From: a bacterium
Lineage (GTDB): Bacteria; Patescibacteriota; Patescibacteriia; UBA2196
Length of the DNA stretch: 64,000 nt
Direction of reading: 5' to 3'
NCBI GenBank assembly: GCA_035387885.1
Contig: DAOOOW010000001.1
Span: 43,392-107,391, forward strand
In this document: positions 381-61,138 of the stretch, piece by piece
How the letters are laid out: each line of letters starts with the position of its first letter
Position numbering within the stretch: position 1 is the first letter of the stretch
Made by a program: the position numbers and the translations under genes
The notes under the pieces: model-generated
What the model was told of the DNA's origin: nothing
Seen by the model: the letters and a program-made list of their open reading frames with translations, nothing else
The model's database searches: none

Positions 381-1137
381 CAACTTTGTTACTATTTCTT
401 TTTGAGAAACGGACAAATATTTCTATTTATCTCTCTAATTCGCATTAGAGTTCGGACTATATCTTCCGCGCCTCCTCGGCGGGTCTAGCGTATAGTCTCT
501 GAGGATTTTAAAGATATAAATCTTGTTTTTTCGTTTTACGATACTTACCATTAACATTCATTTTATAAGCCAAATTAATAATTTTTTTAATTCCTGCTCT
601 ATTTGAATGAGCCCCACTTTGCATTAAAAAAACTATTTGCTTAAAAATTGTAAATGACTTTTGTTTGTCAGAAATAAAATTATATTTTTCAAAAAAAGGT
701 ATAATTTTATCAATTAAATCATCTCTATTTCTAACAACAAAAACATATGTATCGTCTTTCTTATTTTTAACATGGTTTTGTTTTAAATATCCGCAATCAA
801 AATATTTCTTTATAGTTTCCAAAATTTCTAATCGTAAATAACTTTGATTAATATGAAATTCTGGAATTACTTTTATTCCCTGTTTCATTTGCGGATCCTT
901 ATAGAAAGCGACATGAAAAGTTCCTTCACCTTCAGTAAAACCAACAATATACCATGGATTTATATGCTTTAATCTTTCCTGCTGATTGTCTGCGCTCAAC
1001 ACATTGTCACTATGTTTTATATTTTTCATCTATTTATTATAACATAGTAGTGTGAGATACTTCAACTCCTGTTCCTAAAAGGAGTTGGCCAGATTTTCCA
1101 GCATTTAGCTAGATTTATAGACAGCATGGATACTCCT
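381..1137 (-). mobile_element. Group I intron interrupting 23S rRNA, encoding a LAGLIDADG homing endonuclease
   Basis: 23S collinearity breaks after ...GAGACAGT (1138) and resumes at TTGGTCTCC (380). The minus-strand base before the 3' exon is G, consistent with the terminal guanosine of group I introns. The insertion point is near the E. coli 2593 region. Confidence 0.7.
508..1029 (-). CDS. LAGLIDADG homing endonuclease (intron-encoded, single-motif)
   Basis: Contains a LAGLIDADG-type motif (WYIVGFTEGEGTF). The ORF lies wholly inside the 23S intron. Confidence 0.85.
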   Translation of the reverse strand: MKNIKHSDNVLSADNQQERLKHINPWYIVGFTEGEGTFHVAFYKDPQMKQGIKVIPEFHINQSYLRLEILETIKKYFDCGYLKQNHVKNKKDDTYVFVVRNRDDLIDKIIPFFEKYNFISDKQKSFTIFKQIVFLMQSGAHSNRAGIKKIINLAYKMNVNGKYRKTKKQDLYL

Positions 1138-1171
1138 ACTGTCTCACGACGTTTTGAACCCAGCTCGCGTA

Positions 1172-1205
<34 letters not shown>

Positions 1206-1212
1206 GCTTCTA

Positions 1213-1248
<36 letters not shown>

Positions 1249-1475
1249 GAACTCCGCCGTCGCTATGGACGCTTGGGCGGAACTAGCCTGTTATCCCCGG
1301 AGTAGCTTTTATTCAATGATCTTTCAGCCACCTATATGGCATGATCGGTTCACTAACTTATGCTTTCGCAACTGCTCGTCTTGTTGGACTTGCAGTAAAG
1401 CAGGCTTAAGGGTTTGCCCTATCAATCCCGTTTCCATCGGGATCTAGCCTACCTTTGTAAATGCCTCCGTTACTT

Positions 1476-1507
<32 letters not shown>

Positions 1508-2889
1508 ACCAGATAATGTCCCCCTATAGGGGTTAGACTTACTAAATAACAAGGGTGGTATCTCACTATTGTCCCGATTGCTCGGGGCTCCCACCTATGC
1601 TGAACATGTTAATCAATAAATCAATATCAAGTTGTAGTAAAGCTTCACGGGGTCTTTTCGTCTAACTGTGAGAAGCCAGCATCTTTACTGGCATTGCAAT
1701 TTCACCGAGTCCCTTTTTAAGACAGTTTTCAGACCGTTATGCCATTCGTGCAGGACGGAACTTACCCGTCAAGGAATTTCGCTACCTTAGGACGATTATA
1801 GTTATCGCCGGCGTTCATCCGCGCTTCGGATCAGAGCTAGTCTCGATAAATCGATTTTCACCCCTCACGTTAACGTTCGGACACTGGCCAGGCATCAGCC
1901 CCTATACGTAGTCTTGCGACTTAGCAGGGACCTGTGTTTTTGGTAAACAGTCGCCTGAAACACGTTGGTTGCACCCCACATTGCTGTGGGGAGAGCTTAT
2001 CCCGAAGTTACGCTCGTTTTTTTGCCGAGTTCCTTAAAAAAGGGTTCTCTCGTTCACCTTAGTATACTCAACCCGCCTACCTGTGTCGGTTTACGGTACG
2101 GTTACTTTAATTCATGACTCTTGGTTTTTCTTGGCATTCAATCACATGAATTCGATCCAGCCGGAGCTTTCACTTCTACCAGCCGCGCCTCGTTAGACTC
2201 GGGCGGAAATCTCAAATTCCAAATCCTAAATTCCAAATAAATATCAAATTTAAAAAATCAAATTATAAATTATTTTAAAATTTAAAAATTTAATCATTAA
2301 AAATTATTTGGAAATTGAAAATTGAAAATTGGAAATTCCGTGCCGAATGCAATGAGGCACGGCCGGAACGTCATAGCCATAGGACGCTCATTCACTTGAA
2401 TACGTCGCCAAAAAGATAAAATTAAAGTAGGACAGGAATATTAACCTGTTCTTCCATCTTGTGTGACCCTTGGGCCATACAATTAGGATCGCCTAACCCT
2501 GGGATGACAGTCATTGCCCAGGAAACCTGAGGCTTTCGGTGGGCAGGATTCTCACCTGCCTTTTTGTTACTCATGCCAACATTCTTACTTCTGCTTCCTC
2601 CACACTCCCTCGCGGGATATGCTTCGCAGGTTAACAGAATACTCCTCTACCACATCACTGCTACGCAGTGGAAATCCGAAATCACAAATTCTAAATCCGA
2701 AACAATATCTAAATTCAAAAAAATAAAATATTAAAATTTTAAATTTAAATTTTTTAAATTTGTTTCGAATTTCGATATTCGAATTTCGTGCTTCCATTGC
2801 GAAGCAATGACATCCTCATCTTCGGTATTATATTTAGCCCCGAACATTTTTGGCGCATCTTCTCTTGACCAGTGAGCTATTACGCTATC

Positions 2890-2921
<32 letters not shown>

Positions 2922-3505
2922 TGGTTGTATGAGAAAAAACACCACCTTTAACACTTAATATAAATTTAGGGACCTTAGATAGAGATCTGGGCTGTTTCCC
3001 TTTTGACAATGAAGCTTAGCCCCCACTGTCTGACTACTGGAAATTTTAACCGGTATTCGGAGTTTGGTTGGGGAGGATATCTTGCGACTCCAGCCCCATC
3101 CAGTGCTCTACCCCCGGTTAAATATTAACCAGCGCTAGCCCTGAAGCTATTTCGAGGAGAACCAGCTATTACCAGGTTCGATTGGAATTTCACCCCTAAC
3201 CACAGCTCATCCCCGCGTGTTGTACGGCGCGTGAGTTCGGACCTCCTCCCACATTTCTGAGGGACTCATCCTGGCCATGGCTAGATCACCTGGTTTCGGG
3301 TCATACACATGCTGCCTTAAACGCCCATTTAAGACTTGGTTTCCCTATGCCTTAATCCGATTAACGGACTTAGACAAGCAACATAAGTATACTCGTTGGC
3401 TCATTCTTCAATAGGCACACCATTGTCCCGATTACTCGAGACTTTGATTCTTTGAAAACGTATGGTTTCAGAAACTATTTCATCCCCCTCACCGGGGTGC
3501 TTTTA

Positions 3506-3536
<31 letters not shown>

Positions 3537-4710
3537 ATCTTCGAAAGTATTTAGCCTTGGGGCATAGTCGCCCCTGCTTCAAACAGGATTTCACGTGTCC
3601 TGCCCTACTTAAGGTTCGTCATAATGAGATCTTTTCTTTTTGTATACTGGACTATCACCATCTGTGGTATTAGCTTTCCAGCTAATTTCTACTAAGAAAA
3701 AATTTTGTAACTCATTTTTTGTGTTATAAGCCACAAAAACTGACGCCTTGCAACACCTTAAACAGCAACGGCTCATACCTTTAAATACCGCTGCTCCGCA
3801 TCGGCATGCTAATTAATACAAATTATTTACGAATTATACAAATATAAATATTCGTAATAATTCGCAATTTTAATTCGCAAAATTCGCAGTCCAATGCGAA
3901 GCATTGGTAAAACACTGTTTAGGTTTAGGCTTTTCCCGGTTCGTTCGCCACTACTACGGGAATCATTATTATTTTATTTTCCTCCGCTTACTGAGATGTT
4001 TCACTTCAGCGGGTAAGCATCCCTCACTAACTTTTTGCTCCTTTAAAATTTAATCTTAAACATTTTTTGTTCATAAATATTTTATTTTTTATTTACAAAC
4101 ATTTTTATAAAAAAGATAAAATAATAAGCAGAAAGTTAGTGAGGGATAACGCAGGTTTACTACGTTGAGTTTCCTCATTCGGAAATCTCCGGATCAAAGT
4201 TTGCTTGGGAACTCCCCGGAGCTTATCGCACCCTGCCACGTCCTTCATCGCCTTTCGAAGTCTAGGCATCCACCATACGCCATAGTTCTAATATCCTTTT
4301 AAAAATCTTTTATTTTAAAATTTGAAACGTATTTATTACGTGCCTGCCCCGCATTTGCGGGGTAAAAAGATCACGCTTGTCCCGCGACTGCGGGATAAAT
4401 TCGCTTCGTTTTTACTCGATGTACATCCAGCACTAACTTTTTGCCAGTTTAAATATTTATTCTTAAAAACATTATTTAAAAAAATAATTTCTATTTTCCA
4501 TTAAACAAGGTCAATTAAAAAATAAATAAGCAAAAAGTTAGTGCTGGATAAATTGCTTTTACTTTATATATTGATTTCTCCTTTAATAAATTTTTAAAGT
4601 CCTATCCTTATCAACTAATTTCCATCTATTATATATAAACAAAAATTAACTGATAAATTTTTTCAAAATATTCGCATTTAATTCGCAATTTCAATTCGCA
4701 CAATTCGCAT

Positions 4711-6418: not shown

Positions 6419-6534
6419 ATTTATAATTATTTAAATATTCGCCTGCCTGCCGGCGAGGCAGGTAATAATTCGGGTAATTATTTTATTCGGATTAATTCGT
6501 AGGTAATATAGATTGACTATAATTTATCATAAGT

Positions 6535-10375: not shown

Positions 10376-10510
10376 ATAGTTAAAATTAATATATTATTCT
10401 TTTCCTTAAAAATCTGTTATAATAAATTCATCTTAAATATTTTCGCGTTCTTCCGCGATTTCTGTCAGCGTCCAGTCCGCGTCCAGTCCGCGTTAGTCCG
10501 CGTTTATTAT

Positions 10511-12507: not shown

Positions 12508-12760
12508 TTTTTTTTAGTTTATCCCTTTTTAGTTTATCCCGAGCGAATTTACCTTCAGGCAAATGCGCTGAGGGATCTCATTTCTATTCTTGTGTTTTTA
12601 TGTTTTAATGTTTTCATGTTATAATAATTGTGGATAATTATTAGCACCATTCGCAATTTAAAATATTCGTATTAATTCGCAATTTCAATTCGCACAATTC
12701 GCATTAAATAAAAAAGGTCGACTATATAAATTTTTTATTAATTATTTTCTATAAAAAACT

Positions 12761-13126
12761 ATGAACAAAAAAACCTTACAAAAGATTTTCTTTTCCTTGG
12801 CTTTAATTGTTTTAATTGCCCCTATCATGGTGGCTGCCGACGATTTTGGCATAGACAAATTAGATCCTCTTCATTTACCTAATCAAACAGCAGATCCAGA
12901 ATCAATCATCGGCAATGTGATTAACCTAATTCTAGGTTTTTTAGCTTTAATTGCTGTAATTATTATTTTAATAGCTGGTTTTGAATGGATGACTGCTGGT
13001 GGCAATGATAAAAGAGTAGAAACTGCTCAAAAAAGATTAAAATATGGTTTAATTGGTTTAATCATTATTTTCTTAGCCTACGGCATTGTTACCTTTGTTT
13101 TATCAACTCTTACCGATATTGTCTAA
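12761..13126 (+). CDS. Pilin-like secreted two-TM protein (VirB2/TrbC-like), minimal paralog
   Basis: Signal peptide, then LIAGFEWMTAGGNDKRVETAQKRLKYGLIGLIIIFLAYGIV core. Confidence 0.55.
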   Translation: MNKKTLQKIFFSLALIVLIAPIMVAADDFGIDKLDPLHLPNQTADPESIIGNVINLILGFLALIAVIIILIAGFEWMTAGGNDKRVETAQKRLKYGLIGLIIIFLAYGIVTFVLSTLTDIV

Positions 13127-13782
13127 TGAAACATTTAAATTTTAAAAATTTATTCAGCCTTAAAAGGCATCTAAATTTAATGGTTATTGCAATAACTATT
13201 GTTTTTTTATTTTCGTTTGTCTCCCCCGCATTTTGCGGGGGAGCGCAAGCAGCAGACACCGGACTGAAAGAAACAGCCGAAAAGGCTGGTTTACCAATTA
13301 CTGGCGATTTAACTGCTATTATTGGACAAATAATTTACACTATTCTGGGTTTCTTGGGTGTAGCTTTTGTAATTTTAGTTTTATATGGTGGGGCTAAACG
13401 CATGTTTGCCAAAGGAGATAGTAAACAAATCACAGATTCCAATGGCATTATCACTTCTGCTGTGGTGGGTGTGGCTATAATTTTATTATCTTATATTATT
13501 ACTGCTTTTGTTATCAGCCAAGTAAAAAGTAATATTGGAGCTGGAAGTGATACTACTTATCCAGTAAGTGGAGAGCCACGAGGCGCAGAATTACCAAGTT
13601 CTGGGTGTACACAGGACTCTGATTGTTCATGTAGTACAAGATTGCAACTGCCCAAATGTATTATAAGTTCTGGGATGTGTGATGTGTGTCAAAGTGTTCA
13701 ATGTATAGATGCTAGTGATTGTACTGGCGAAAGTCCAATAGGTTGGACTTGTGTAAATCATACATGCACGCAAGGTAACTAG
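13126..13782 (+). CDS. Pilin-like two-TM protein (VirB2/TrbC-like) with a Cys-rich C-terminal domain
   Basis: Core LYGGAKRMFAKGDSKQITDSNGIITSAVVGVAIILLSYII. C-terminal 60 aa with 12 Cys. Carries an in-frame CCCCCGCATTTTGCGGGGG palindrome. Confidence 0.55.
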   Translation: MKHLNFKNLFSLKRHLNLMVIAITIVFLFSFVSPAFCGGAQAADTGLKETAEKAGLPITGDLTAIIGQIIYTILGFLGVAFVILVLYGGAKRMFAKGDSKQITDSNGIITSAVVGVAIILLSYIITAFVISQVKSNIGAGSDTTYPVSGEPRGAELPSSGCTQDSDCSCSTRLQLPKCIISSGMCDVCQSVQCIDASDCTGESPIGWTCVNHTCTQGN

Positions 13783-14193: not shown

Positions 14194-14415
14194 AAAAATA
14201 ATTATTTTTCTTAACTCCGACCACCCAGTCGGTTTTTTGTTTACCATAAAGTATATTTTATTAAATTAATTTTGTCTTACTACTATAACCACCCCGCCCG
14301 ACTCCGTCGAGGCACCCCTCCTTGAAAAGGAGGGGATAAATTTTATTCCTCTATTTTAATAGAAAAGAATATTAAAAAATAAAAAACGGCACTCATTGAG
14401 CGCCGTTTGTGTCTG

Positions 14416-14793
14416 TCATCTTCGCGACTTGGGGTTTCGAACTGCCCCAGCCGAGTTTATATCTTCCTCTGCTTGTCTTTGTCTCTGAGGAGTCAGCGAA
14501 CGAGAAGATTTTTTTTCATCTCCAGCAGATCTATGACCGTACTCTTGCTTATAAATTTTAACCTGTTTAGTCTGGCCAACAACCCCCACCGGGGTCTGTT
14601 CTGTAATTATCTCGGCCACAGTCCCGGTGATTGACTCTGCCTCTCCAGATTTAATTTTTTCAGAGACAGCTTCATTCATAGCACTCAGGCTATTGTTGTA
14701 ATTTGCTAGCGACTTGTGAATCGGGCTATAACATCCCGAGGCCACATACGCTACTAACAAAAAAACAACTGTCAAAACAAGTAGTTTTTTCAT
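14416..14793 (-). CDS. Putative lipoprotein (hypothetical)
   Basis: MKKLLVLTVVFLLVAYVASGC lipoprotein signal preceded by GGGAGG RBS. Lies in a region of elevated GC. Confidence 0.5.
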   Translation of the reverse strand: MKKLLVLTVVFLLVAYVASGCYSPIHKSLANYNNSLSAMNEAVSEKIKSGEAESITGTVAEIITEQTPVGVVGQTKQVKIYKQEYGHRSAGDEKKSSRSLTPQRQRQAEEDINSAGAVRNPKSRR

Positions 14794-14809
14794 CTCAACC
14801 TCCCAATAT

Positions 14810-15067
14810 TTAAAACCAACTTTCCACAAAATTCACCACTATTGGCCAGAGAACAGTGTTGGTAATTCCTTTAATCAGAAGAACCAATACTGCCGCCCAG
14901 CAAATGGAATGTAAGGTGGCAAAAAATATGGCCAATGTTTTGCTACCTTCATCTTTGCAATCATCTGCTTTTTCGACAAACCACAAACCGGCCAGAAAAA
15001 ACAATACAGCTACCAAAAAATGCGTAGCAAAACCTTGCGTCCAGTTTTGTTTAATAAGTTCCCACAT
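14810..15067 (-). CDS. Small integral membrane protein (hypothetical)
   Basis: Two or three predicted TM helices. Start uncertain. Same operon as 14416 and 15079. Confidence 0.4.
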   Translation of the reverse strand: MWELIKQNWTQGFATHFLVAVLFFLAGLWFVEKADDCKDEGSKTLAIFFATLHSICWAAVLVLLIKGITNTVLWPIVVNFVESWF

Positions 15068-15078
15068 AGTACCTCCTG

Positions 15079-15357
15079 TTATCTGGCTGGAGCGTTGAGC
15101 ATAATCCACCAGCTATACCAATCAATATCAAAATAATTAAAAAGAGTTAAAAACATAAACACAATGCCAGCAAAGGCAATAACACCTTCAATTACATCAA
15201 TTAAAAAAACAACTTTTTTTCCTATCTTCTTTTTCTTTTCAAAAAAAATACTAAGGCGATCTATGGAAAAATACAGAGCGGCACACAGACCAAGTGCAAC
15301 CAAGGTTGCCAATTGATCACGTATAAGATGCAACAGTGAACTTTCCGGAATCGGCAT
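15079..15357 (-). CDS. Small integral membrane protein (hypothetical)
   Basis: Two TM helices. First gene of the minus-strand operon. Confidence 0.45.
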   Translation of the reverse strand: MPIPESSLLHLIRDQLATLVALGLCAALYFSIDRLSIFFEKKKKIGKKVVFLIDVIEGVIAFAGIVFMFLTLFNYFDIDWYSWWIMLNAPAR

Positions 15358-15431
15358 AACAACCTCCTGCTATTAAATGACCTGATTTGAAATTACTATT
15401 TAATAAATCAGCATACTTTATTTGTATATTT

Positions 15432-15447
15432 TTGTCAACCTTGACAA
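15432..15447. promoter_or_regulatory. Perfect palindrome TTGTCAACCTTGACAA in the divergent promoter region. A second TTGACA..TATATT lies at about 15494-15515
   Basis: Read directly from the sequence. Sits between the divergent operons 15357(-) and 15539/15889(+). Confidence 0.4.
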
Positions 15448-15888
15448 AATTTTCAATCTATGCTAAGCTTGTATATTCTAATAAAAACAGCTCGTTGACA
15501 AATATTAATATATTAAGGAAGGAAAAAGGTGATTACTTGTGGCAAAAACCATAGCCACTTTTGTATATCAAACAAGTATCCCTACTAAGGATGAAAGGGG
15601 CCCATTCGTGGCTGTTCATTCTAAAATGATAACGGGGGTTCTTGTTAAGAAAACAGCGGGATGTATATGGATAAAACCGGCTGTTTTAAATGAGCGCGGA
15701 TCTGTTGTTTCTATTAATAGATCAATTGCGCAATTTTCAATCTCAAAAATATCTGGCCCGATAAACTTCAAGCAATCAAGCTAACGAGCCAGTATTTTAT
15801 ATTAATAAACAGACCGCGAAAAATTAATAGCTTTTCGTTGGTCATAGTGTTGTTTAATTTCTTAACTCCCATGGTGGAGGAGGAAAAA

Positions 15889-16812
15889 ATGAAAAAGAGC
15901 GAAACTTTTATTCCGGGCGCCAACCAAATCAGTATTGGGTATGTAGCACTGTTCCCCGGAAAACTGACCCAGCTGAGAGACGACATCCCATGGGTAAAAA
16001 CCCGTGTGCTCAACGGCAATTTGCCGGGGACGGAAAAGGACTCGGGGATAACCGTGGTGCCGTGTCATTTGGATCACGGCAAAATCACCTTACCCGAGGA
16101 CATTGCCAACCACGCGTGTATCCAAAGATGGGAACGCGATGGTGTGACCCATCAAGAGGGCGGTCCGCTTCAACCGGTTTATGCCCTCAAGTCTGTTGAA
16201 AGACGCGGAAAGGATGAAAATGGCAATGGATTCGTCATCCTGCCGTGTCTTACAGATGGCAGTGCCCCCTATGGGTCATTTGTACCCGCCCAAGACGGCC
16301 AAAAAGATTACATCGTCGCCTATGTCAACAACATTGTGGACGGCATAACGGTTATGCTGATGGTGGAAGCCATTGAAAACGGAGTCTATCACGCCCACAT
16401 CTCGGTCGCGAATTTTACAGTCAATAGTATGACCGGGGAAGTTTTGCGTGAGAACGCCATCAACAGAGCGTTTGTGGTCGAAGGACGTCCGGATACTCTG
16501 CCGAATTTTTCTTCAAGAGTCGGCGAAAAGTATCTCGAAGCCTTTAAGGCGGCTATGGCCATTTTCAAAAGTATGGCGAAAGGCGAACGCCAGTGCGCCA
16601 TGTGGGTCAAGGACATTACCCGTCCGATCACTGCCCCCGTCCCCGATGCACCGTCTCCGGTTGAAGAACCGGCATCGGCGCCCGCTCCGGAAGCGAAAAG
16701 CAAAGGTGGCAAAGGCAAAAAGGCTGCCAAACAGCCCACGGCCGATGTCACGACCAATGGTGGCAACGGCCACACCGACACTGTGCCAGCCCCCAACGAA
16801 GTTGTTGCCTAG
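15889..16812 (+). CDS. Hypothetical protein, strongly GC-rich (about 50% GC against about 30% background), Pro/Ala/Lys-rich C-terminal tail
   Basis: GGAGGAGG RBS before ATG 15889. No family recognised. Confidence 0.6.
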   Translation: MKKSETFIPGANQISIGYVALFPGKLTQLRDDIPWVKTRVLNGNLPGTEKDSGITVVPCHLDHGKITLPEDIANHACIQRWERDGVTHQEGGPLQPVYALKSVERRGKDENGNGFVILPCLTDGSAPYGSFVPAQDGQKDYIVAYVNNIVDGITVMLMVEAIENGVYHAHISVANFTVNSMTGEVLRENAINRAFVVEGRPDTLPNFSSRVGEKYLEAFKAAMAIFKSMAKGERQCAMWVKDITRPITAPVPDAPSPVEEPASAPAPEAKSKGGKGKKAAKQPTADVTTNGGNGHTDTVPAPNEVVA

Positions 16813-16831
16813 TCCATCAGGACAAGGCAGA

Positions 16832-16863
16832 AGCTCGTCTCTTAGGAGACGGGCTTTTTTATT
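16832..16863 (+). terminator. Rho-independent terminator
   Basis: AGCTCGTCTCTTAGGAGACGGGCT followed by TTTTTTATTTT. Confidence 0.6.
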
Positions 16864-17458: not shown

Positions 17459-17540
17459 AGCCGAGATTAATTTAATTTTGGCTTTTCTTTTTTCTAAAAA
17501 TAAAGTACAATAAAAACAGTTATTGAAAATAAAAAAACAT

Positions 17541-17626
17541 GGAAGGGTCGCATAGTTGGTCTAGTGCGCACGCTTGGAAAGCGTGTGTGGGGCAACTCAC
17601 CGCGAGTTCGAATCTCGCCCCTTCCG
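17541..17626 (+). tRNA. tRNA-Ser (anticodon GGA)
   Basis: Anticodon stem-loop CACGC-TTGGAAA-GCGTG, long variable arm, T-loop TTCGAAT, discriminator G. Confidence 0.85.
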
Positions 17627-17765
17627 AATAGATGTCCTCAAGCAGACAAATGAACTGCTTCATTTGTCGGTGCGATTCGAACAGTTTTTCCTTATCCCGA
17701 AAACTCGGGATGGAAAAACATTGAGAATCCCTGCCTACCGGCAGACAGGTCGCCCCTTCCGAATT
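17627..17765 (+). repeat. tRNA-adjacent hairpin-rich element ending in a duplicate of the tRNA-Ser 3' end (GTCGCCCCTTCCGAAT)
   Basis: Direct repeat of the tRNA 3' terminus at 17611-17628 and 17749-17765. Internal hairpins, including ATCCCGAAAACTCGGGAT and CCTGCCTACCGGCAGACAGG. Confidence 0.5.
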
Positions 17766-18271: not shown

Positions 18272-18319
18272 TTTTTTAAATAATCTATTTCGGAATTATT
18301 ATTTTGTATTATTATCTTT

Positions 18320-18391
18320 GCCCTTGTCGTTCAATGGATAGGACATGAGCTTGCGGAGCTCACAATGTAGGTCCGATTCCTACCGAGGGCA
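18320..18391 (+). tRNA. tRNA-Arg (anticodon read as GCG, with an unusual TCCGATT T-loop)
   Basis: Hand-folded cloverleaf: acceptor GCCCTTG/CGAGGGC, anticodon arm TGAGC-TTGCGGA-GCTCA. C at position 55 is atypical. Confidence 0.55.
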
Positions 18392-18552
18392 AAGATGATC
18401 ATAAAAAAATCTGCCAGTAAAAGTAAAGGTATTTTGTAGGTCCGTGGGTTTCGCGGTGTCCCTAAAGGGACACATCACTCAACCCGTTGTGGCTATAAAA
18501 ACTAAAGCAGTTTAGTTTTTATTTAACGCCACAACTCCTACCGAGGGCAAAG
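18392..18552 (+). repeat. tRNA-adjacent repeat element with a GCAG-loop hairpin, ending in a duplicate of the tRNA-Arg 3' end (CTCCTACCGAGGGCAAAG)
   Basis: Repeat of GTAGGTCCG and of the tRNA 3' end. Hairpin ATAAAAACTAAA-GCAG-TTTAGTTTTTAT is homologous to copies at 52565 and 26290. Confidence 0.5.
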
Positions 18553-18659
18553 ATAATTATAAAAAATAATAAAAATAATGATAAAAAGATAAAATTGACA
18601 AAAAATATTTTCTGAAGTATAATGGCTTTAGAGACAAAAATCAACCTTTTTACCTTTAA

Positions 18660-22429: not shown

Positions 22430-23275
22430 TTATTTTACTTTAGACAGTTTAATTAAATTTTTAAAAAGATAAGCTACAGTTAATGGTCCAACCCCACCAG
22501 GCACAGGAGAAATATATTTTGTTTTAATTAAGCAACTTGGGTCAACGTCCCCAAATATTTTTTTGCCAACTCGATTTATACCTACATCAATTATGATAGC
22601 ATCTTTTTTTAGCATAGCTGGCTTTAAAAAATTTTTCTTACCAAGAGCGATAATAACAATACGGTAATTGGTAATTGGTAATTGGTAATTGGTAAATTGA
22701 CTTTTTGATTTTATAAAAACTTTAATTTTTTCTTTGGCTAATTCTTTTTTTAGAGATTCAGCAAATTCTTGACTATGACACAAGATGACGGCTTTTTTAT
22801 TAATTAATTTTTGTTTAGATAATTTAATCAAATGTAAAATACTCTGGATGGTTGGAGAAATTATCTCTGGTGACCTCTCCCCAACCCTCTCCTTATAAAG
22901 GAGAGGGGGATGCAGCCCGTCTACATCCTTTTTTTTGTCAATCAAAGAAATAATCTTATTAGTCTTAAATTTTTTAGGTAATGGTAGTTGCACCATTAGG
23001 CCAGTTATTTTTTTATCATTATTTAATTTTTTAATTAAGTTAACTATTTTTTGCTCGCTAACAGTTTCTGATAAATGATATTTAAAAAAATTAACACCAA
23101 TTTCTTTGGCGCGTTTTTCTTTGATAGCCACATAAATTTTTGAGGCCGGATCATGCCCAACTAAAATCACCGCCAAAGTTGGTTTAAATTTTAATTTCGC
23201 GATTTGTTTTTTCAAATCTAAAAATATTTTTTCTGCTTCTTTGGAACCATCAAGCAAAATTTGACTGTTGAGCAT
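22430..23275 (-). CDS. folD: Bifunctional methylenetetrahydrofolate dehydrogenase/cyclohydrolase FolD
   Basis: KDVDG.HP and GGVGP.T motifs. Carries an in-frame palindromic repeat (22885-22908) encoding PPLLYKERVGE. Confidence 0.85.
   Translation of the reverse strand: MLNSQILLDGSKEAEKIFLDLKKQIAKLKFKPTLAVILVGHDPASKIYVAIKEKRAKEIGVNFFKYHLSETVSEQKIVNLIKKLNNDKKITGLMVQLPLPKKFKTNKIISLIDKKKDVDGLHPPLLYKERVGERSPEIISPTIQSILHLIKLSKQKLINKKAVILCHSQEFAESLKKELAKEKIKVFIKSKSQFTNYQLPITNYRIVIIALGKKNFLKPAMLKKDAIIIDVGINRVGKKIFGDVDPSCLIKTKYISPVPGGVGPLTVAYLFKNLIKLSKVK
22885..22908. repeat. Palindromic element CCCTCTCC-TTATAAA-GGAGAGGG embedded in-frame in folD
   Basis: Identical 24-mer at the intergenic site 24575-24598. 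Half copy at 60826-60840. Related G/C variant at 24150-24174. Confidence 0.7.
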
Positions 23276-23836
23276 ATTTTTAGTAAGGTTAGGTTATTAA
23301 ATTAACCTTATTACTCGGAGGAAAAATGAACTTTTTTATCTTTTCAATACTCACCACAAGTGCTTTATTAATCATGGGTATATGGGTTGGTGTTTCTATT
23401 TTTCGTGGCACCACCAATGGAACATGGCGTTATTTGACAAAAAGCGTGTTTCACAGAATATTCACACGAAAGGAGTAAACTAATGTAATCATTAACAGGG
23501 GATTTTCTACCGGTTATCCACCATTGGAAAATTTCAGGAACTGCTTTTTTAATCAAATTATTAAAAGAAGCATATGACGCAGACCCTCTAATTATTCCAA
23601 TACATGTTTGTATGACTCGCAATCTATTTTTTGAAAAAAGAATCGCTACCCATGACTTCCGTCTTGGAAAATACTTGTTACGTCTGCCCATGTGGACAGG
23701 CAAAGAAGCACGGGAGGAGCTTGAGTGTAATCAAATGCTTCATTTTAAAATTACTGAAATTTCTCATCAAGAATAATAACAAAAAACGCAAAATACAATA
23801 TTTTCAACTACTCAGCAGCACTCCCAAGGAGGCACT

Positions 23837-24040
23837 ATGACATTCCAAGAGGTAGCCATAAGACGTTACTTCATCTGCAAAAAAAATGGTGTTTTATATT
23901 TCAAGACGTCAGAAACAAATGCGCGATATTGGATTATGCATAAAGCAACGTGGGGCGAGGTTACAAATGAGGATCTTCCAAAGCTGGGGGATGTTTTCAT
24001 ACCCAGTGCTGAGGAACTCACAGAAAGACTGGACATCTGA
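23837..24040 (+). CDS. Small hypothetical protein (67 aa)
   Basis: GGAGG RBS 7 nt before ATG. Followed by a strong terminator. Locally elevated GC. Confidence 0.45.
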   Translation: MTFQEVAIRRYFICKKNGVLYFKTSETNARYWIMHKATWGEVTNEDLPKLGDVFIPSAEELTERLDI

Positions 24041-24058
24041 AAATAATTGTCTCTCCAT

Positions 24059-24090
24059 CTGCCAGTTGCAAAACTGGCAGTTTTTATTTT
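24059..24090 (+). terminator. Rho-independent terminator
   Basis: CTGCCAGTTGCAAAACTGGCAG followed by TTTTTATTTTTT. Confidence 0.65.
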
Positions 24091-24178
24091 TTAAATTTTA
24101 AATTTATTTAGTCTTGCAATTGTGAGTAGTTTAAAAAATGTCTCACCTGGCCCCCTCCCCTTAATAGGGGGGGTAGTA

Positions 24179-24565
24179 TTATTTTTTATTATTTTTTATC
24201 TCTTCACCAGTAATCCATATTTTTTCCACAACCGAATCAATATTGTCAAAAATTTCTTTACTATTAAATCTTTCAACAATTATACCTATTGATTCTAAAT
24301 ATTTTTGTCTTCTATTATCATACTCCGCTTGATCATCATACTCATGGGTACGCCCATCAATTTCAATACATAATTTAAGAGTTGGTGCGTAAAAATCTAC
24401 TATGTAAGATCCAATACTGTATTGTCTTTTGAATTTATATCCCAATTGATTGGCTTTAAGTTTTGACCATAATAATCTTTCACCTTTAGGCATGGATTGT
24501 CTTAACAATCTTCTAACGCTTTTCTTCTCTTCTGTGTTATAGAGTGTGGTGAGCATAGAATACAC
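24179..24565 (-). CDS. DUF559 (Vsr/restriction-endonuclease-like fold) domain protein
   Basis: LLWSKLKANQLGYKFKRQYSIGSYIVDFY..KLCIEIDG.TH matches the DUF559 signature. Confidence 0.7.
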   Translation of the reverse strand: MYSMLTTLYNTEEKKSVRRLLRQSMPKGERLLWSKLKANQLGYKFKRQYSIGSYIVDFYAPTLKLCIEIDGRTHEYDDQAEYDNRRQKYLESIGIIVERFNSKEIFDNIDSVVEKIWITGEEIKNNKK

Positions 24566-24604
24566 CTCTCCCTACCCTCTCCTTATAAAGGAGAGGGGAA
24601 ATAA

Positions 24605-25837: not shown

Positions 25838-25861
25838 TTTTTAAATTATAAATATTTAAAT

Positions 25862-25990
25862 TTTATTTCCCATACCCTTAGTAGGAGTTGAAGCTTCAAT
25901 TGAAAAGTAAACTGCTTTACTTTTAATTAGCCAAAACTGGCGAAGCGTTATCCCGAACACTCGGGATCGCTGAGCCCTCGGACCTACAAA
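25862..25990. repeat. Copy of the tRNA-associated repeat family (CCCTNGTAGGAGTTG end motif, CTGC-loop hairpin)
   Basis: Sequence similarity to the 26100-26340 and 18392-18552 elements. Hairpin AAAAGTAAA-CTGC-TTTACTTTT. Confidence 0.4.
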
Positions 25991-26004
25991 AATTTTATTA
26001 ATCT

Positions 26005-26076
26005 TACCCCCGGTAGGAATCGGACCTACATAACCAGCTTAGAAGGCTGGTGTTCTATCCATTGAACTACAGGGGC
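26005..26076 (-). tRNA. tRNA-Arg (anticodon TCT)
   Basis: Hand-folded: acceptor GCCCCTG, anticodon arm CCAGC-CTTCTAA-GCTGG. Shares the TCCGATT T-loop with the 18320 tRNA. Confidence 0.6.
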
Positions 26077-26099
26077 ATAAGTAATAAAATTTATAAAAA

Positions 26100-26340
26100 T
26101 TATTTTTAACATTACCCTCGGTAGGAGTTGCGGCGTTAAACCCCGCAAAATGCGGGGTAGTCACAAAGGGTTGAGCTTTATGCCGACAGGCATAGCGAAA
26201 CCTTCGAACCTTTATAAATAGCTTAGAAGGCTACTGCACTTGGGTTTGTTGATTCCTTCGGCATAACAACAAACCCGTTCTCGCACCAAAGCACTTAAAG
26301 CAGTTTAAGTGCTTTGGTCAGCTCGAACTCCATTGTGCTA
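26100..26340. repeat. MITE-like repeat element with imperfect terminal inverted repeats and an internal GCAG-loop hairpin
   Basis: Left end CCCTCGGTAGGAGTTGCGGCGTT is the reverse complement of the AACGCCACAACTCCTACCGAGGG tRNA-3'-like motif. Contains a TCT anticodon-arm-like segment and a CCCCGCAAAATGCGGGG hairpin. Confidence 0.45.
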
Positions 26341-28253: not shown

Positions 28254-28376
28254 AAGCAAAGAGTACTCTTCAACTTATACCTTGGCCCTTTTGGGTCCAA
28301 GGTTTTTTATTTTCCCAACTTATTTATTACTATTACCCCTTATTAATCTTTACTTATTACTTATTACTTATTCATC

Positions 28377-36116: not shown

Positions 36117-37751
36117 TTATTTTAATTTTTTAATTAGATATGTTTGTCTTAATTCTGTGTAGCCAAGTTTTTTATAATATTCTCTGACACCAATGCCAGC
36201 AATGACAGCTATTTCTTGAAAACCATTTTTCTGGGCAATTTTTTCTGCCTCAATTAAAAGCTTTTTGCCCAAACCTTTGTGCTGACTTGATAATTTTATT
36301 TTACTACCAATGGGGGTCAGTTGTCCATAGGAATGCAGTTCACGAATAATAGCGATTTTATCCGCCTGCACTCCTAATGATCCATTTTTTGCTCCGGCGG
36401 ATAAATTTATACTTTTAGGCAAGCGTAATCTACAGAAGGCGTACAAAATTTTTCTATCTTCTGATTCCATACTCAAAAAATATTCTGTACCACCATTAGC
36501 GTTATATTTTTCTATAAACATTTTGGTTCCCATTTTTTGCCTTTTACCTTTTGCCTTTTGCCTTTCTATTTGGTGTCCTACCTCCCTACATCTTATACAT
36601 TTACATTCTACTTTCAATAAATGTCTGAGGTTAGTAATTTTGTTACCGGCCGCGATAGATTCTTCAGGAATATCGCGAATAACTCGAATAATGCGCACAT
36701 AATAAGGAATTATTTTTTTAATTTTTATCAAAAGCATGGTTAATTTCTTAGTAGTATAGGGTTTATATTGGCCTTTTTTCCACCAATTATATAATTCAGC
36801 ATATTCATTAACCACACAAGGATAAATTTTAATTTGATCTGGTTGAAAATTATAATCTGAAAAAAGTTTTTTAAACATTAAAAAATCTTTATCCGGATTA
36901 GAACCCGGCAAATTAAGCATTAAATGATAAGTAATTTTAAAACCTAAATCGCGTAGGATTTTAGTAGCTTTAATAGTTTCTTTCACACCATGCCCACGTT
37001 TATTTAATTTTAAAATCTGGTCATCAATATGTTGCACACCTAATTCCACCCGCGTGCAACCAAGTTCGCGCATGGCCCAAGCAGATTTTTCTGTAATATA
37101 ATCTGGCCGAGTTTCCAAAGTTAAACCCACAATTCGATGTTTAGCTGTTTCGTTTTTCTTTTGTTCTGTATATAAATCGTCCCAAGTTATTTTATTAACA
37201 AGTTTTGATATTTTATTTTTTTTATAATTATTAGCAGCCAAAAAACAATTATAAACAAAACATAAGCGATATTTTTCTGGCAAATAGTCCCAAGTACCGC
37301 CCATAATAATTAATTCTATTTTATCAGTCTCGTGGCCGTTATTTTCCAAAGCTCTAATTCTTAAGGCCACTTGTTTAAAAGGATCAAATTGACACAAAAC
37401 CGCGCGCATGACGGCTGGTTCATTGGAAAGATAACTTTTGGGCATGTTCTTTTCGGTTGGACAATACACACAATTGCCTGGACATTTATATGGTTTGATT
37501 AAAACTGCCACCGGCGCCACACCAGAAAGTGTGCGAATGTGACGTTTTTTAAAAAGTTCTTCCAAATTTTTATCTGATTTTATTTTTTTACTTTTTACTA
37601 ATCCACGATATGCTTTTAACAGTTCTGCATTGGTTAATAAATTGGTTTTATTTTGCTTGGCAAATTTTCTTTTGAGCACAGCTAATTCGGCCTCATTTTT
37701 CGGAAGTTTAGTAAATATTTTTTTGATATTTTTGTTATACTCTTGAAACAT
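36117..37751 (-). CDS. Elp3-like radical SAM / GNAT acetyltransferase (bacterial Elp3 homolog, probable tRNA wobble-uridine modification)
   Basis: Radical-SAM Cys cluster CPGNCVYCP. C-terminal GNAT acetyl-CoA motif (Q.KGLGKKLL.EAEKIA). Length 544 aa. Confidence 0.75.
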   Translation of the reverse strand: MFQEYNKNIKKIFTKLPKNEAELAVLKRKFAKQNKTNLLTNAELLKAYRGLVKSKKIKSDKNLEELFKKRHIRTLSGVAPVAVLIKPYKCPGNCVYCPTEKNMPKSYLSNEPAVMRAVLCQFDPFKQVALRIRALENNGHETDKIELIIMGGTWDYLPEKYRLCFVYNCFLAANNYKKNKISKLVNKITWDDLYTEQKKNETAKHRIVGLTLETRPDYITEKSAWAMRELGCTRVELGVQHIDDQILKLNKRGHGVKETIKATKILRDLGFKITYHLMLNLPGSNPDKDFLMFKKLFSDYNFQPDQIKIYPCVVNEYAELYNWWKKGQYKPYTTKKLTMLLIKIKKIIPYYVRIIRVIRDIPEESIAAGNKITNLRHLLKVECKCIRCREVGHQIERQKAKGKRQKMGTKMFIEKYNANGGTEYFLSMESEDRKILYAFCRLRLPKSINLSAGAKNGSLGVQADKIAIIRELHSYGQLTPIGSKIKLSSQHKGLGKKLLIEAEKIAQKNGFQEIAVIAGIGVREYYKKLGYTELRQTYLIKKLK

Positions 37752-38008
37752 AACCCATGTTTGTCATCCCGACCGCAGTCCCGAGGATACGGGACGTAGT
37801 GGAGGGATCTATATTTTTATTAATTTTAGATTCCCTGCCTACCGGACAGGCAGGCTCCATTCCTAACGACTAAAAAAGCCAGTCGGAATGACAAAAAAAT
37901 ATTTTTTAAAAAAACAGAGCGGAAATTTGTCTCCGCTCCAATATATTTCTCTATCACTTGAACCATATTTCTATTCCAATAAGGCCTAACAAAAATCTTT
38001 CTGATTTT

Positions 38009-38316: not shown

Positions 38317-39141
38317 ATGAACCAAACTACTGCAGAAAATTTAATGAAAATTACCCAAGAATCCTATCAAAAAATTGCGTCTAGTTTTTCTGAAACCAGA
38401 AATTTTTCTTGGGTAGAAATTGATTTAGCCATTGAAAAATATTTGAAAAATAATTGCAAAATTTTAGATTTAGGTTGCGGTAATGGACGTCTGTTATTAT
38501 CTCTAAAAAAATATTTAGAAAATTTTGATTATACTGGTGTGGATAGTTGCCTAGAGTTAATTAAAAAAGCACAATTATCTTTTGCTTCATCGCAATTATC
38601 ACCTTTGTCATTCCCGCGAAAGCGGGAATCCAGAAACATTGCTTTTGAGCGTGGTGATATTTTAAACTTAACTAACTTTGCAGATAATTCCTTTGATTGT
38701 GTCTTTATGATCGCTAGTTTTAACCATGTTGCCAGTGTTGAACTACGCGAAAAATTATTATTAGATGTTAAAAGAGTCTTAAAACCAAATGGATTTTTAA
38801 TTATGACCAACTGGAATTTGTGGAATGTGTATAACAAAAAATCAGTCTGGTCTTATATACTGTCATCCCGAGTGGAGTTCCAACGAAGTCTGGGCGGAAC
38901 CGAGGGATCTCATATTTTTTCTGGATTCCCGATTAGATCGGGAATGACAATAAAAGATGTTCTCACTTTCTGGCAAAATCAATCCCCTATTTATTATCAC
39001 GCCTTCACCTTACGAGAATTAAAAAAACTTTTGCCAAAAACAAATTTTAAAATTTTAGCCAATTATTATGTTAAGGACGGTCAAAAATCTTTTTGGTTTA
39101 ATGGTAAAAATATTTTAACTATTGGCCAAAAAATAATATAA
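38317..39141 (+). CDS. Class I SAM-dependent methyltransferase carrying two in-frame palindromic repeat insertions
   Basis: Motif I ILDLGCGNGRLL. Inserted segments at about 38601-38640 (GTCATTCCCGCGAAAGCGGGAATCC) and about 38864-38960 (GTCATCCCGAG...GGATTCCCGATTAGATCGGGAATGAC) are translated in-frame. Confidence 0.8.
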   Translation: MNQTTAENLMKITQESYQKIASSFSETRNFSWVEIDLAIEKYLKNNCKILDLGCGNGRLLLSLKKYLENFDYTGVDSCLELIKKAQLSFASSQLSPLSFPRKRESRNIAFERGDILNLTNFADNSFDCVFMIASFNHVASVELREKLLLDVKRVLKPNGFLIMTNWNLWNVYNKKSVWSYILSSRVEFQRSLGGTEGSHIFSGFPIRSGMTIKDVLTFWQNQSPIYYHAFTLRELKKLLPKTNFKILANYYVKDGQKSFWFNGKNILTIGQKII

Positions 39142-39204: not shown

Positions 39205-39531
39205 CTACCAAAGACACTTCTCAGTGTCTTTGGAAGGAGGAACTGCTTCGAGAGGTATGACTACCTCTCGAATCTCTCTGGGGCCTTCAACCCCAGAGGA
39301 GAGTATGTGCAACGCAAGCGAAACGGTTGCGTTGCACATACTTAGTGGTTTAATTACCAAAACTTTTTTTTCTCCGTCACAACTGACGGAGAAAAAATTT
39401 TTTGTCTCCTCCTCTTCTGTCGCGAGGAGGAATATTACAACCTGGGCCACCCACTTGAGGCCCTCAGAGTAAGGGGGCTTGCCGCCCTCCTCTCTGAATC
39501 GAGCAACCATTTCGCGTGCTGCCTGAATCAT
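39205..39531 (-). ncRNA. GC-rich array of eight consecutive, unrelated perfect hairpins (stems 5-13 bp) ending in a terminator. Candidate structured RNA. The nominal 109-aa ORF is probably not a real protein
   Basis: About 52% GC against about 30% background. The hairpins are listed in findings. Preceded by the shared leader element and an RBS-ATG. Confidence 0.35.
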
Positions 39532-39565
39532 GCTATTTCTCCTTTTTTCTCCCACCAGCCCCATG

Positions 39566-39652
39566 CCAGTAGGCTACTGCCTTAAAGTTATCGAGCAAAT
39601 AAGACCAAAAGATTTTATCCGCTCTTAGTTTTTAAGGCATAAGTCTACTGGC
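39566..39652 (-). promoter_or_regulatory. Conserved structured leader/operator, copy 1 (CCAGTAGACTTATGCCTTAA ...45 nt... TTAAGGCAGTAGCCTACTGG)
   Basis: About 90 nt nearly identical to the inverted copy at 61317-61406. Related to 41275-41360. Confidence 0.6.
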
Positions 39653-39821
39653 AAATAAATTTTAAAGGTGCTCTTTTTATTTAAATTAATTATCAAAATT
39701 TTTACTGCTTTATCTAACACTATAATTATCACATTTTTATCAAAAAGTGTCATTTCTGTCGACAAAATTATTAACTTGCTATTTTATTTTGCTTATATTA
39801 TAATAAAAATGAATAAATTTT

Positions 39822-51206: not shown

Positions 51207-51365
51207 AAGTAACAAGTAAATAATTTTAAAAATCAAATTTTAAAATTCAAAATAAATCAAAAATTAAAATTTTAAAACTTAAACTAAAAGGCTTAATATT
51301 TTAAAAATTAAATATTTAAAATTATTTTAAAATTTGATTTTTAAAATTTAAAATTTATTTATGTT

Positions 51366-52242: not shown

Positions 52243-52539
52243 GCAATTAATTTAGCGAAGAATCTTGGTTGGGATGATTTAAAAAATGAGATTAGAGGCG
52301 AAGTAGATGGTATGATTAATAGATGGACAATAAAAAATAAAGAATAAAATTTATAAAAAATAAACCCCCTGAGAATATCAAGGGGTTTTACAATTAAAGT
52401 AGGGGCACAAAATTTTGTGCCCCTACAAAAAATACTCCGCAGCTACAAGCGTGGGGTTAATTTTAACTTCGTTCACTGTTAGTTAAAAAACTAGATCCCT
52501 CCGCTCGTTCTTACAGTGGGTTTCACAATGCCTGTCGAC

Positions 52540-52760
52540 ATAATGCTTCACCCATTGTGGCTATAAAAATTAAAGCAGTTTAATTTTTATTTAACGCCAC
52601 AACTGGTCGAGATAAACTGCAGGAAAAAATAATGAGCTACCCCGCATCTAAAAGTGCGGGGTTAATTTTAACTTTGTTCGCGGGTGGTTTTGCCGTCATT
52701 CCATTCGGCAAAACCTGGCTCACTTCGTTAAAATTAAAAAGCCCCGAGCAGGCGGAGCTA
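52540..52760. repeat. Cluster of repeat-family copies (GCAG-loop hairpin, CCCCGCA..TGCGGGG hairpin, GTCATTCC element)
   Basis: CTATAAAAATTAAA-GCAG-TTTAATTTTTAT with compensatory changes relative to 18495. GGGGTTAATTTTAACTT occurs twice. Confidence 0.5.
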
Positions 52761-61039: not shown

Positions 61040-61138
61040 AACCTTACTTTTGTTATAAAACTATAACTTTAAATATGATTAATTTTGGCTTAATTTAGCA
61101 TAAAATAGCATTAAAAAAGCTAATTTTGATATAAATAC

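Follow-up and report, generated by a model that had tools for sequence, protein, structure and literature searches.

Hairpin repeats read in frame in folD and a methyltransferase gene of a Patescibacteria genome, and the association of one repeat family with a DUF559 gene cassette

How does a short palindrome come to lie inside a housekeeping gene and, in identical form, next to that gene as well? The question is raised by the folD gene in a 64-kb stretch of contig DAOOOW010000001.1 (assembly GCA_035387885.1), the whole of which is referred to here as the window. The window is AT-rich (GC content ca. 32%), and its proteins have their closest named relatives among the Patescibacteria, for example Candidatus Kuenenbacteria. 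A preliminary description of this DNA had proposed that short selfish palindromes are embedded in frame in folD, in a methyltransferase gene and in a pilin-like gene, in the manner of the Rickettsia palindromic elements (RPEs), and that this would be a property of the lineage. The explanation which we consider probable is that these are nuclease-associated hairpin repeats fixed in permissive protein loops, each repeat family being cognate to a small nuclease gene that it flanks. Two features in folD form the starting point:

22430-23275, minus strand: folD, the host gene, 281 aa (Pfam THF_DHG_CYH, 5e-35, and THF_DHG_CYH_C, 6e-31), with two repeat hotspots
22871-22909, minus strand: hairpin repeat of the type here called A, 39 nt, in frame in folD and homologous to the copy at 24563-24598

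The 24-mer CCCTCTCCTTATAAAGGAGAGGGG was found exactly at 22885-22908 and at 24575-24598, as had been claimed, with no third match of three or fewer mismatches in the window; 100 shuffles gave an expectation of 0. The likeness between the two copies runs 12 nt further to the left (ACCTCTCCC[C/T]A[A/-]CCCTC...), with 34 of 36 aligned positions identical. The pair is not an assembly artefact, since the window sequence is identical in the JGI and ENA assemblies and since both copies are kept in a strain (NCBI GCA_964498445.1, referred to as L006) that is 98.8% identical to the window.

On the sense strand the folD repeat consists of CCCCCTCTCCTT-TAT-AAGGAGAGGG followed by TTGGGGAGAGGTCA; its 39 repeat-derived nucleotides (CCCCCTCTCCTTTATAAGGAGAGGGTTGGGGAGAGGTCA) are read as PPLLYKERVGERS, residues 123-135 of the protein, and as DNA it is predicted to form a hairpin of -12.7 kcal/mol (z -3.4). 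Where the closest insert-free ortholog reads DVDG-L-NSSKLISPT, the window protein reads DVDG-LH-PPLLYKERVGERS-PEIISPT, a net gain of 12 codons over P0002, the nearest ortholog without an insert. In a codon-level comparison with related sequences, L002 lacked the insert, while L001 and L130 held A-type elements at the same place (site 1). Among the 30 closest FolDs, site 1 is empty in about 11, holds an A-type element in four (the window protein, P0007, P0017 and P0030), and is otherwise occupied by CHPELVSGS..NKFGMT elements, VIPAKAGIQ-type elements or AT-rich repeats. The AlphaFold2 model of FolD has a mean predicted local distance difference test score (pLDDT) of 90.5 and dips only at residues 121-140 (59-70) and 191-200 (66); the 13 repeat-coded residues probably form a disordered loop between the two domains. 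The in-frame palindrome proposed for folD is thus supported both by orthologs in which the site is empty or holds other families and by the low-confidence loop. The expected insertion is seen when FolD, like the methyltransferase described below, is aligned with close orthologs, but measured against canonical FolD the repeat changes the length very little: solved FolDs carry a 17-residue FHPxNxGxLxxG segment at site 1, which many FolDs of the Candidate Phyla Radiation (CPR) have shortened to 7-11 residues and which is otherwise lost in the clade of the window, and the repeat takes its place and restores roughly the canonical length without any likeness to the canonical segment.

The other copy had been taken for a free intergenic one. 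It is instead where a DUF559 cassette, placed between glyA and folD by insertion, has its 5' boundary. The cassette is composed as follows:

23276-24604, no strand assigned: spacer between glyA and folD, 1.33 kb, containing the DUF559 cassette, two small plus-strand open reading frames (ORFs) and a terminator
24563-24598, minus strand: A-type hairpin copy that flanks the DUF559 gene on its 5' side and begins 6 nt past the glyA stop codon
24179-24556, minus strand: DUF559 gene, endonuclease-like with a Vsr-like / PD-(D/E)xK fold (PF04480, 4e-29; PDB 3hrl, 1e-17; NF007294)
24141-24173, minus strand: degenerate second hairpin, CCCCCCCTATTAAGGGGAGGGGG + CCAGGTGAGA, at the 3' flank of the DUF559 gene

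While 1.33 kb separates glyA from folD in the window, the two genes overlap in L001, L002 and L127. After the glyA stop codon follow the 24-mer copy, GGGAGAGGTG, the DUF559 gene (125 aa from ATG, or 128 aa from a GTG at 24565) and the degenerate second hairpin (CCCCCCCTATTAAGGGGAGGGGG..GGTGAGA). Exactly the same order, glyA-[hairpin]-DUF559-[hairpin]-folD, is found in L130, whose DUF559 is 79% identical and whose folD, as noted, also has an A-type element at site 1. In the window the two A-type copies are direct repeats that bracket the DUF559 gene and the 5' part of folD, the folD copy lying 1.7 kb downstream. This folD copy has the loop TATA and GGGAGAGGT in common with its own cassette copy, whereas the folD copies of L130 and L001 have the loop ACGA and GGGGTGAGGT, a pattern that suggests copying or conversion between nearby copies.

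Metagenome contigs were scanned with the window DUF559 protein as the starting point, the direction that proved informative, yielding 20 non-redundant loci in 12 independent genomic contexts. A CCTCTCC..GGAGAGG palindrome lay no more than 110 nt upstream of the DUF559 ORF in 19 of the 20 loci; 17 also had the outer arm GGG(T/A)GAGGT, and eight had a further copy just downstream. The remainder of these loci contained two matches to the palindrome in 30.8 kb, one of them being the folD copy of L130. We propose a DUF559-associated hairpin cassette, made up of a CCCTCTCC-type palindrome with a GGGG(T/A)GAGGT outer arm at most ca. 110 nt upstream of the gene and often a second copy downstream, and the window fits this description. 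Hairpin-coded peptides occurred in nine of 150 DUF559 representatives, an uninformative figure because gene callers start past the hairpin. No description of such a pairing was found in the searchable literature on DUF559 and repeats or on the A-type sequence. The A-type family is statistically tied to DUF559 genes; any enzymatic activity of the protein is presumed, and its action on the hairpin is presumed by analogy with Ssn.

The 24-mer is the inner stem-loop of a nested hairpin of ca. 39-55 nt, ACCTC(A/T)CCCC - CCCTCTCCTT NNN AAGGAGAGGG - GGGG(T/A)GAGGT. A scan for its core (CCCTCTCCTTNNNAAGGAGAGGG) in one genome per species gave at least 120 loci from at least 10 phylum-level groups, with 138 copies among the matches listed. 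The hosts include Nostocales, in which the core is abundant, and other Cyanobacteria, Bacteroidota, Ignavibacteria, Armatimonadota, Chloroflexi, many Patescibacteria, Bdellovibrionales, Leptospirales, Pseudomonadota and Bathyarchaeia. Among the matches listed, the copies are almost always nested in ACCTCACCCC / GGGGTGAGGT outer arms, and 17 of the 138 lie inside long open frames (at least 60 codons on each side), such as ORFs that resemble GcvP in Runella and RarA in a Falkowbacteria genome, and kinases of cyanobacteria. DUF559 was the only small gene family found to recur beside the palindrome among the listed loci, and all three of its ORFs there lie within 300 nt of it.

These distributions bear on one alternative, namely that the folD stretch is ancestral coding sequence and that the match upstream of DUF559 arose by chance or was derived from folD. 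The stretch does have about the length of the canonical FHPxNxGxL segment, and L001 and L130 carry it at the same site; set against this, its sequence is unrelated to that segment, the closest orthologs lack it, no chance match is expected, and the same hairpin recurs in the loci of other phyla and upstream of DUF559 genes that have nothing to do with folD. We regard this alternative as largely refuted, and its probability as close to negligible.

The second host gene, that of the methyltransferase, and the elements that go with it are:

38317-39141, plus strand: class I S-adenosylmethionine-dependent methyltransferase, the host gene, 274 aa, with two repeat hotspots
38606-38633, plus strand: element 1, a hairpin repeat of NTS/SRM type, single module, in frame (TGTCATTCCCGCGAAAGCGGGAATCCAG, read LSFPRKRESR)
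38861-38949, plus strand: element 2, a two-ended SRM-like miniature element of 89 nt, in frame (TGTCATCCCGAG...CGGGAATGACA), with TGTCAT...ATGACA termini
37762-37893, plus strand: intergenic full-length relative of element 2, with both termini and a nested CCTGCCTACCGGACAGGCAGG module
12547-12580, plus strand: intergenic partial relative, left module only (TATCCCGAG..GAGGGATCTCA)

Element 1 agrees with the Neisseria NTS consensus CGTCATTCCCGCGMAVGCGGGAATCYRG at 27 of 28 positions, only the first base being different, and nothing else in the window matches, as it does, the published pattern of the Ssn-related motifs (SRMs), HGTCWYN(0-2)YYVSBRHN(0-5)WNVSBRGN(0-2)RNCYNB (one match, against 0.03 expected from shuffles). 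Its predicted hairpin has an 8-bp stem (-9.0 kcal/mol, z -3.9), and by its sequence it is a member of the NTS/SRM group. In element 2 each of the TGTCAT...ATGACA ends is one hairpin module, and end modules of the form TGTCATYCC..GGRAT number five in the window against 0.05 expected. Both in-frame elements that had been described in the methyltransferase were recovered, in low-confidence loops and with orthologs that are empty or hold other families. Their proposed intergenic relatives fared unevenly: the one at 37762-37893 is complete with both termini and the one at 12547-12580 matches in part, while 52690-52720 has no more than GTCATTCC in common, a weak likeness.

NTS repeats already have a known partner. 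The 28-nt Neisseria NTS encompasses dRS3, and the small GIY-YIG nuclease SsnA binds its single-stranded DNA form and cuts just upstream of it; ssnA genes are typically flanked by SRMs in an IS-like NTS-ssnA-NTS arrangement, and Neisseria transformation is modulated by these repeats (Chenal et al. 2025, PMC11893778). The same paper names Rickettsia among the SRM-rich genomes and mentions neither Patescibacteria nor intragenic copies nor DUF559. Near-identical copies of element 1 were found by blastn in Neisseria gonorrhoeae (at least 40 per record), Azospirillum, Legionella, Cupriavidus and sphingomonads, and one copy of NTS/SRM type lies inside the annotated ileS of Sphingopyxis indica, in frame (RHPRESGDP...LDSRFRGNDK). 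The idea of palindromes specific to this lineage could therefore not be upheld, NTS/SRM repeats being known from Neisseria and many Pseudomonadota and the folD family occurring across phyla; nor are in-frame copies a property of this lineage, as the Sphingopyxis ileS and the Runella GcvP-like ORF show. A GIY-YIG ORF was observed in a related genome (L128, 2000-2560), where it encodes 93 aa and lies between duplicated tRNA-Arg(tct)-like segments with ccttctaagctagttataggggtt on both sides; three copies of an AT-rich hairpin (CCATAAAGATTTATGG) precede it, it has no flanking GTCAT hairpins, and the arrangement suggests that a nuclease gene has gone into a tRNA gene.

In both host genes the repeats are concentrated at two places. 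The second hotspot of folD, just before the IIIALG strand, holds an array in the window:

22663-22695, minus strand: (GGTAATT)x4.7 heptamer array at folD hotspot 2 (100% matches in TRF), read TNYQLPITNY

This array is length-neutral relative to the orthologs, which have other heptamer-coded peptides (ITNYELRITNY, ITHYTLRITHY) or VIPAEAGIQ..GMT at that position. In the methyltransferase orthologs, site 1 is occupied by SPLSFPRKRESRN and longer relatives, by SRACLPAGRGS, by AT-rich repeats or by nothing, and site 2 by SSxRKRGS...FPIRSGMT, by FTDYELQITDY or by nothing. Over the 33 FolD and 28 methyltransferase sequences compared, the two hotspots of each protein are either empty or occupied by one of at least five repeat families, and on a rough neighbour-joining tree their occupancy in FolDs is patchy. 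A clean filled/empty pair is provided by the folD genes of L127 and L002 (77% nucleotide identity), in which elements of 105 and 72 nt, both bounded by TGTCAT...ATGACA, are present at the two sites of L127. Because different families alternate at the same two loops among orthologs, we regard these loops as permissive landing pads; the hotspots probably result from selection for loops that tolerate inserts, to which a preference of arriving elements for hairpins already in place may add. The suggestion that the inserts would map to loops agrees with the AlphaFold2 models of both proteins; in the methyltransferase model, with a mean pLDDT of 84.9, residues 97-100 and 193-205 are the only ones below 50, and both stretches are repeat-coded.

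Further repeats were seen elsewhere in the window. A CCTGCCT(G/A)CCGG..AGGCAGG hairpin family is intergenic at 6442-6462, 17728-17748 and 37834-37854, once nested in the 37762-37893 element, and is read in frame as SRACLPAGRGS in the methyltransferase orthologs P0122 and P0124. Further heptamer arrays are (TTTTGCC)x4.4 at 36535-36565, read QKAKGKRQK in an ELP3-like radical-SAM/GNAT protein (ORF 36117-37751, minus strand), and (CTTATTA)x4.9 at 28339-28372, at the end of a small ORF.

The two-ended elements raise the possibility of ordinary MITEs (miniature transposable elements with inverted repeats), which a DDE transposase recognising TGTCAT...ATGACA would move in trans, with the Ssn and DUF559 genes as neighbours or passengers. 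Terminal inverted repeats, small size and the lack of an internal transposase are indeed found in the elements at 38861-38949 and 37762-37893 and in those of L127; the inverted termini are of TG...CA type, the lengths run from 72 to 132 nt, and the modular, nested build is typical of MITEs. The terminal-repeat definition is not applicable to single-hairpin copies, however, and neither the A-type repeats nor methyltransferase element 1 has two distinct ends, each being a single hairpin. The window's four other TGTCAT modules, in which GTCAT tag, hairpin and ATC(C) tail recur, narrowly fail the strict SRM pattern, as do the L127 elements; the conserved tag and hairpin are exactly the features recognised by SsnA (PMC11893778). 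None of the copies had a visible transposase nearby, most ORFs of the window being unscreened against protein-family libraries, and the A-type hairpin lies beside DUF559 in all but one of the 20 loci. On balance a MITE origin in this sense seems to us distinctly unlikely.

It could also be asked whether the inserts are part of the proteins at all, rather than being bypassed by the ribosome, removed from the mRNA or carried by decaying pseudogenes. GC-rich 'byp' elements are bypassed by the ribosome in some yeast mitochondria, a similar setting of GC-rich palindromes inside the genes of an AT-rich genome, and the FolD of this clade has a degenerate Rossmann motif. Yet all repeat-derived stretches in both window genes are in frame and without stop codons, the catalytic and structural motifs of FolD (Y48, K52, QLPLP, DVDG, PVPGGVGP) are invariant across the clade, and both proteins are predicted to fold with high confidence around the inserts. 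We hold an untranslated insert to be highly improbable. If translated, as the open frames suggest, the inserts should give rise to the junction-spanning peptides DVDGLHPPLLYK, ERVGERSPEIISPTIQSILHLIK and SPLSFPR.

The third gene of the preliminary description gave a mixed result:

13221-13243, plus strand: GC-rich palindrome within a pilin-like ORF (13126-13782), in its signal-peptide region, CTCCCCCGCATTTTGCGGGGGAG (FVSPAFCGGAQA)

The recurrence of its stem family stood: CCCCGCA..TGCGGGG occurs four times in the window (4347, 13224, 26141 and 52640) against 0.01 expected, and the same 17-mer is repeated at 26141-26157. The in-frame insertion did not. The ORF has only three homologs, all of which keep FVSPAFCGGAQA, the 60%-identical one with its DNA almost unchanged, and the signal-peptide region is conserved throughout at the DNA level; the palindrome was accordingly rejected as a demonstrated insertion. 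Beside the pilin-like genes, a 2.6-kb block (14270-16850) is riddled with indels and largely unalignable between the window and L006, forming a hypervariable region whose flanks are 98.8% identical over the aligned regions.

According to the scheme that we propose, a [hairpin]-DUF559-[hairpin] cassette would have been inserted between glyA and folD, the other copy coming to lie in frame in the inter-domain loop of FolD, and each hairpin family would have as its partner a small stand-alone nuclease gene, flanked by the repeats cognate to it, as has been demonstrated experimentally by others for Ssn and SRMs (PMC11893778). Copies may be dispersed by nuclease- or recombination-initiated copying, or by gene conversion between copies. 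Since GC-rich palindromes contain few stop codons, those copies that keep the frame and land in indel-tolerant surface loops of a gene-dense, AT-rich genome would survive selection and join the protein, and the same permissive loops would be hit again, or their occupants replaced, repeatedly in related lineages. A further and more tentative proposal, to which we give less than even weight, is that the A-type hairpin and DUF559 form a second, hitherto undescribed nuclease/hairpin-repeat system across bacterial phyla and Bathyarchaeia, parallel to Ssn-NTS and built on the Vsr-like PD-(D/E)xK fold, in which DUF559 would recognise or cut the CCCTCTCC hairpin and thereby drive the copying or conversion of the repeat.

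Several observations weigh against nuclease-associated repeats fixed in loops. No repeat is polymorphic for presence or absence between the window and L006, the two available strains, so that recent movement is without direct support, and a motif scan of the window did not find an Ssn-like GIY-YIG gene. A DUF559 gene is near only three of the 120 A-type loci listed, and this genome fragment itself has only two to three A-type copies; as solo copies far outnumber cassette copies, they are likened to non-autonomous derivatives. The link with DUF559 could also mean that the hairpins are regulatory or boundary elements of DUF559 genes and not nuclease substrates. The translation of the inserts is read from the open frame, and ORF-based databases are biased towards in-frame cases; the loop placement derives from pLDDT and DSSP of predicted models; and target-site duplications are not definable, since at the junctions identity to the orthologs with empty sites does not exceed 77%.

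A rival scenario is that the hairpins are useful in place, as regulatory mRNA or DNA structures or as modulators of recombination or transformation, so that the coding copies are selected and not merely tolerated. The A-type stem pairs an AAGGAG arm resembling a Shine-Dalgarno sequence with a CTCCTT arm resembling its complement, stems are perfectly conserved while loops vary (in the window, L001 and L130, and across phyla), the two A-type copies are direct repeats around DUF559 and the 5' part of folD, and the effect of NTS repeats on Neisseria transformation (PMC11893778) is a precedent. The cross-phylum stem conservation is, however, partly built into a search whose pattern was chosen on the stem, many close orthologs with intact genes lack any element at the same sites, and the families found there are different and unrelated. 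We consider selection for such a function unlikely, and retain nuclease-associated repeats in permissive loops as the preferred explanation.

How, then, do these repeats compare with known systems? RPEs are elements of ca. 150 bp that form ten Rickettsia families, each with its own conserved peptide (Ogata et al. 2000, via PMC10969869). The comparison with them is a fair one because the in-frame repeats sit where close orthologs differ, in low-confidence loops: in both cases dispersed palindromes that also occur intergenically are read in frame in unrelated housekeeping genes of a reduced, AT-rich genome, adding fold-compatible peptides. The likeness thus holds for behaviour and fails for size, RPEs of ca. 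100-150 bp standing against single hairpins of 28-39 nt or two-ended elements of 72-132 nt here; the present families, moreover, cross phyla and are linked to small nuclease genes. We do not class the elements as RPEs. A connection is nevertheless possible, drawn from the listing of Rickettsia among SRM-rich genomes (PMC11893778) and not from sequence comparison with RPE consensuses. The DUF559 cassette mirrors the hairpin-nuclease gene-hairpin order of Ssn, but the A-type sequence differs from NTS/SRM repeats and the partner has a Vsr-like / PD-(D/E)xK fold instead of GIY-YIG.

Repetitive extragenic palindromic (REP) sequences and REPINs with their REP-associated tyrosine transposases (RAYTs, IS200/IS605-like Y1 enzymes) are likewise short GC-rich hairpins in many copies, tied to a flanked single-copy domesticated enzyme gene that acts on single-stranded DNA hairpins. 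REPs are extragenic by definition. The A-type copies lack the GTAG/CGTC tag of REPs, while in the repeats with a GTCAT tag (B-type) the tag is TGTC in the window and CGTC in NTS; no RAYT gene was seen in the window, in which no Y1 transposase profile search was made. A perfect 28-nt GTAG...CTAC palindrome (GTAGGGGCACAAAATTTTGTGCCCCTAC), with the tag typical of RAYT-associated REPs, occurs as a single copy at 52399-52426. Cyanobacterial small dispersed repeats are reportedly hairpins that insert into genes, RNAs and each other, alongside heptamer short tandemly repeated repetitive (STRR) sequences, as Elhai et al. in 2008 and Mazel et al. in 1990 are said to have described; to our knowledge, no nuclease partner has been proposed for them. 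The abundance of the A-type core in Nostocales and the heptamer arrays seen here recall these repeats in kind. Finally, ERIC, BOX, Correia and Anabaena MITEs are miniature inverted-repeat elements with occasional in-frame fusions to host ORFs (PMC10969869); those form families at species or genus level and are presumed to be moved by transposases, whereas the present families cross phyla and are paired with nucleases. Among all of these, the DUF559 cassette is best described, by analogy, as belonging to the nuclease-plus-cognate-hairpin kind represented by Ssn-SRM and RAYT-REP.

The window, which contains nine tRNAs, housekeeping genes typical of small genomes and one 23S rRNA longer than the model, has other hairpin-rich places. 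At 17540-17764, 18319-18553 and 25858-26330, tRNA genes are followed by blocks of hairpin modules of 120-160 nt that end in a repeat of the tRNA 3' end, namely TCGCCCCTTCCGAAT at 17615 and 17750 for tRNA-Ser and TCCTACCGAGGGCAAAGA at 18378 and 18536 for tRNA-Arg, and similar blocks containing a CCCCGCAAAATGCGGGG palindrome surround tRNA-Arg(tct). These blocks have the look of miniature elements that integrated at the 3' ends of tRNAs, or else of tRNA-like RNAs into which hairpins were inserted. The 23S rRNA (1053-4296, minus strand) is ca. 320 nt longer than the Rfam bacterial model, with insertions of ca. 104 and 152 nt near model positions 165 and 283; its AT-rich heptamer-type hairpins at ca. 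2200-2340 and 2670-2790 resemble repeats at 51200-51360 and 57260-58020.

A perfect inverted repeat of 91 nt occurs at 39564-39654 and 61316-61406, 21.7 kb apart. The first copy lies upstream of a hairpin-dense 360-nt stretch (39205-39564, minus strand) that ends in a terminator, matches nothing in Pfam or Rfam and is possibly a structured RNA; the second lies upstream of a response-regulator-like ORF, after a hairpin-rich spacer of 1 kb (60355-61417). Directly upstream of an ORF starting at 10511, an 11-nt GC-rich tandem repeat, (GTCCGCGTCCA)x3.7, occupies 10464-10503. With Rfam, at both gathering and E-value thresholds, no family was found over the repeats, the tRNA-adjacent modules or the hairpin-dense stretch.

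In-frame palindromic repeats had already been described in Rickettsia, and the pairing of NTS/SRM repeats with Ssn became known in 2025. New here is the occurrence of such families, including a near-perfect Neisseria-type NTS, inside Patescibacteria housekeeping genes, where they recur at two loops per protein, and the tight coupling of the folD repeat to DUF559, a very large family; a search of the literature on in-frame palindromes in CPR bacteria and on repeat-coded peptides found nothing relevant. Repeat-coded inserts inflate and distort metagenome protein families, and the peptides PLLxKER, VIPAKAGIQ, SFPRKRES and ...GMT are to be read as repeat-coded and not as functional motifs. If the more tentative proposal of a second nuclease/hairpin-repeat system is true, its repeats, together with SRMs, would time and again reshape the same surface loops in the housekeeping proteins of CPR bacteria, as well as tRNA 3' ends and rRNA helices, and a function would be at hand for DUF559, a family of ca. 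22,000 cluster representatives without a known role.

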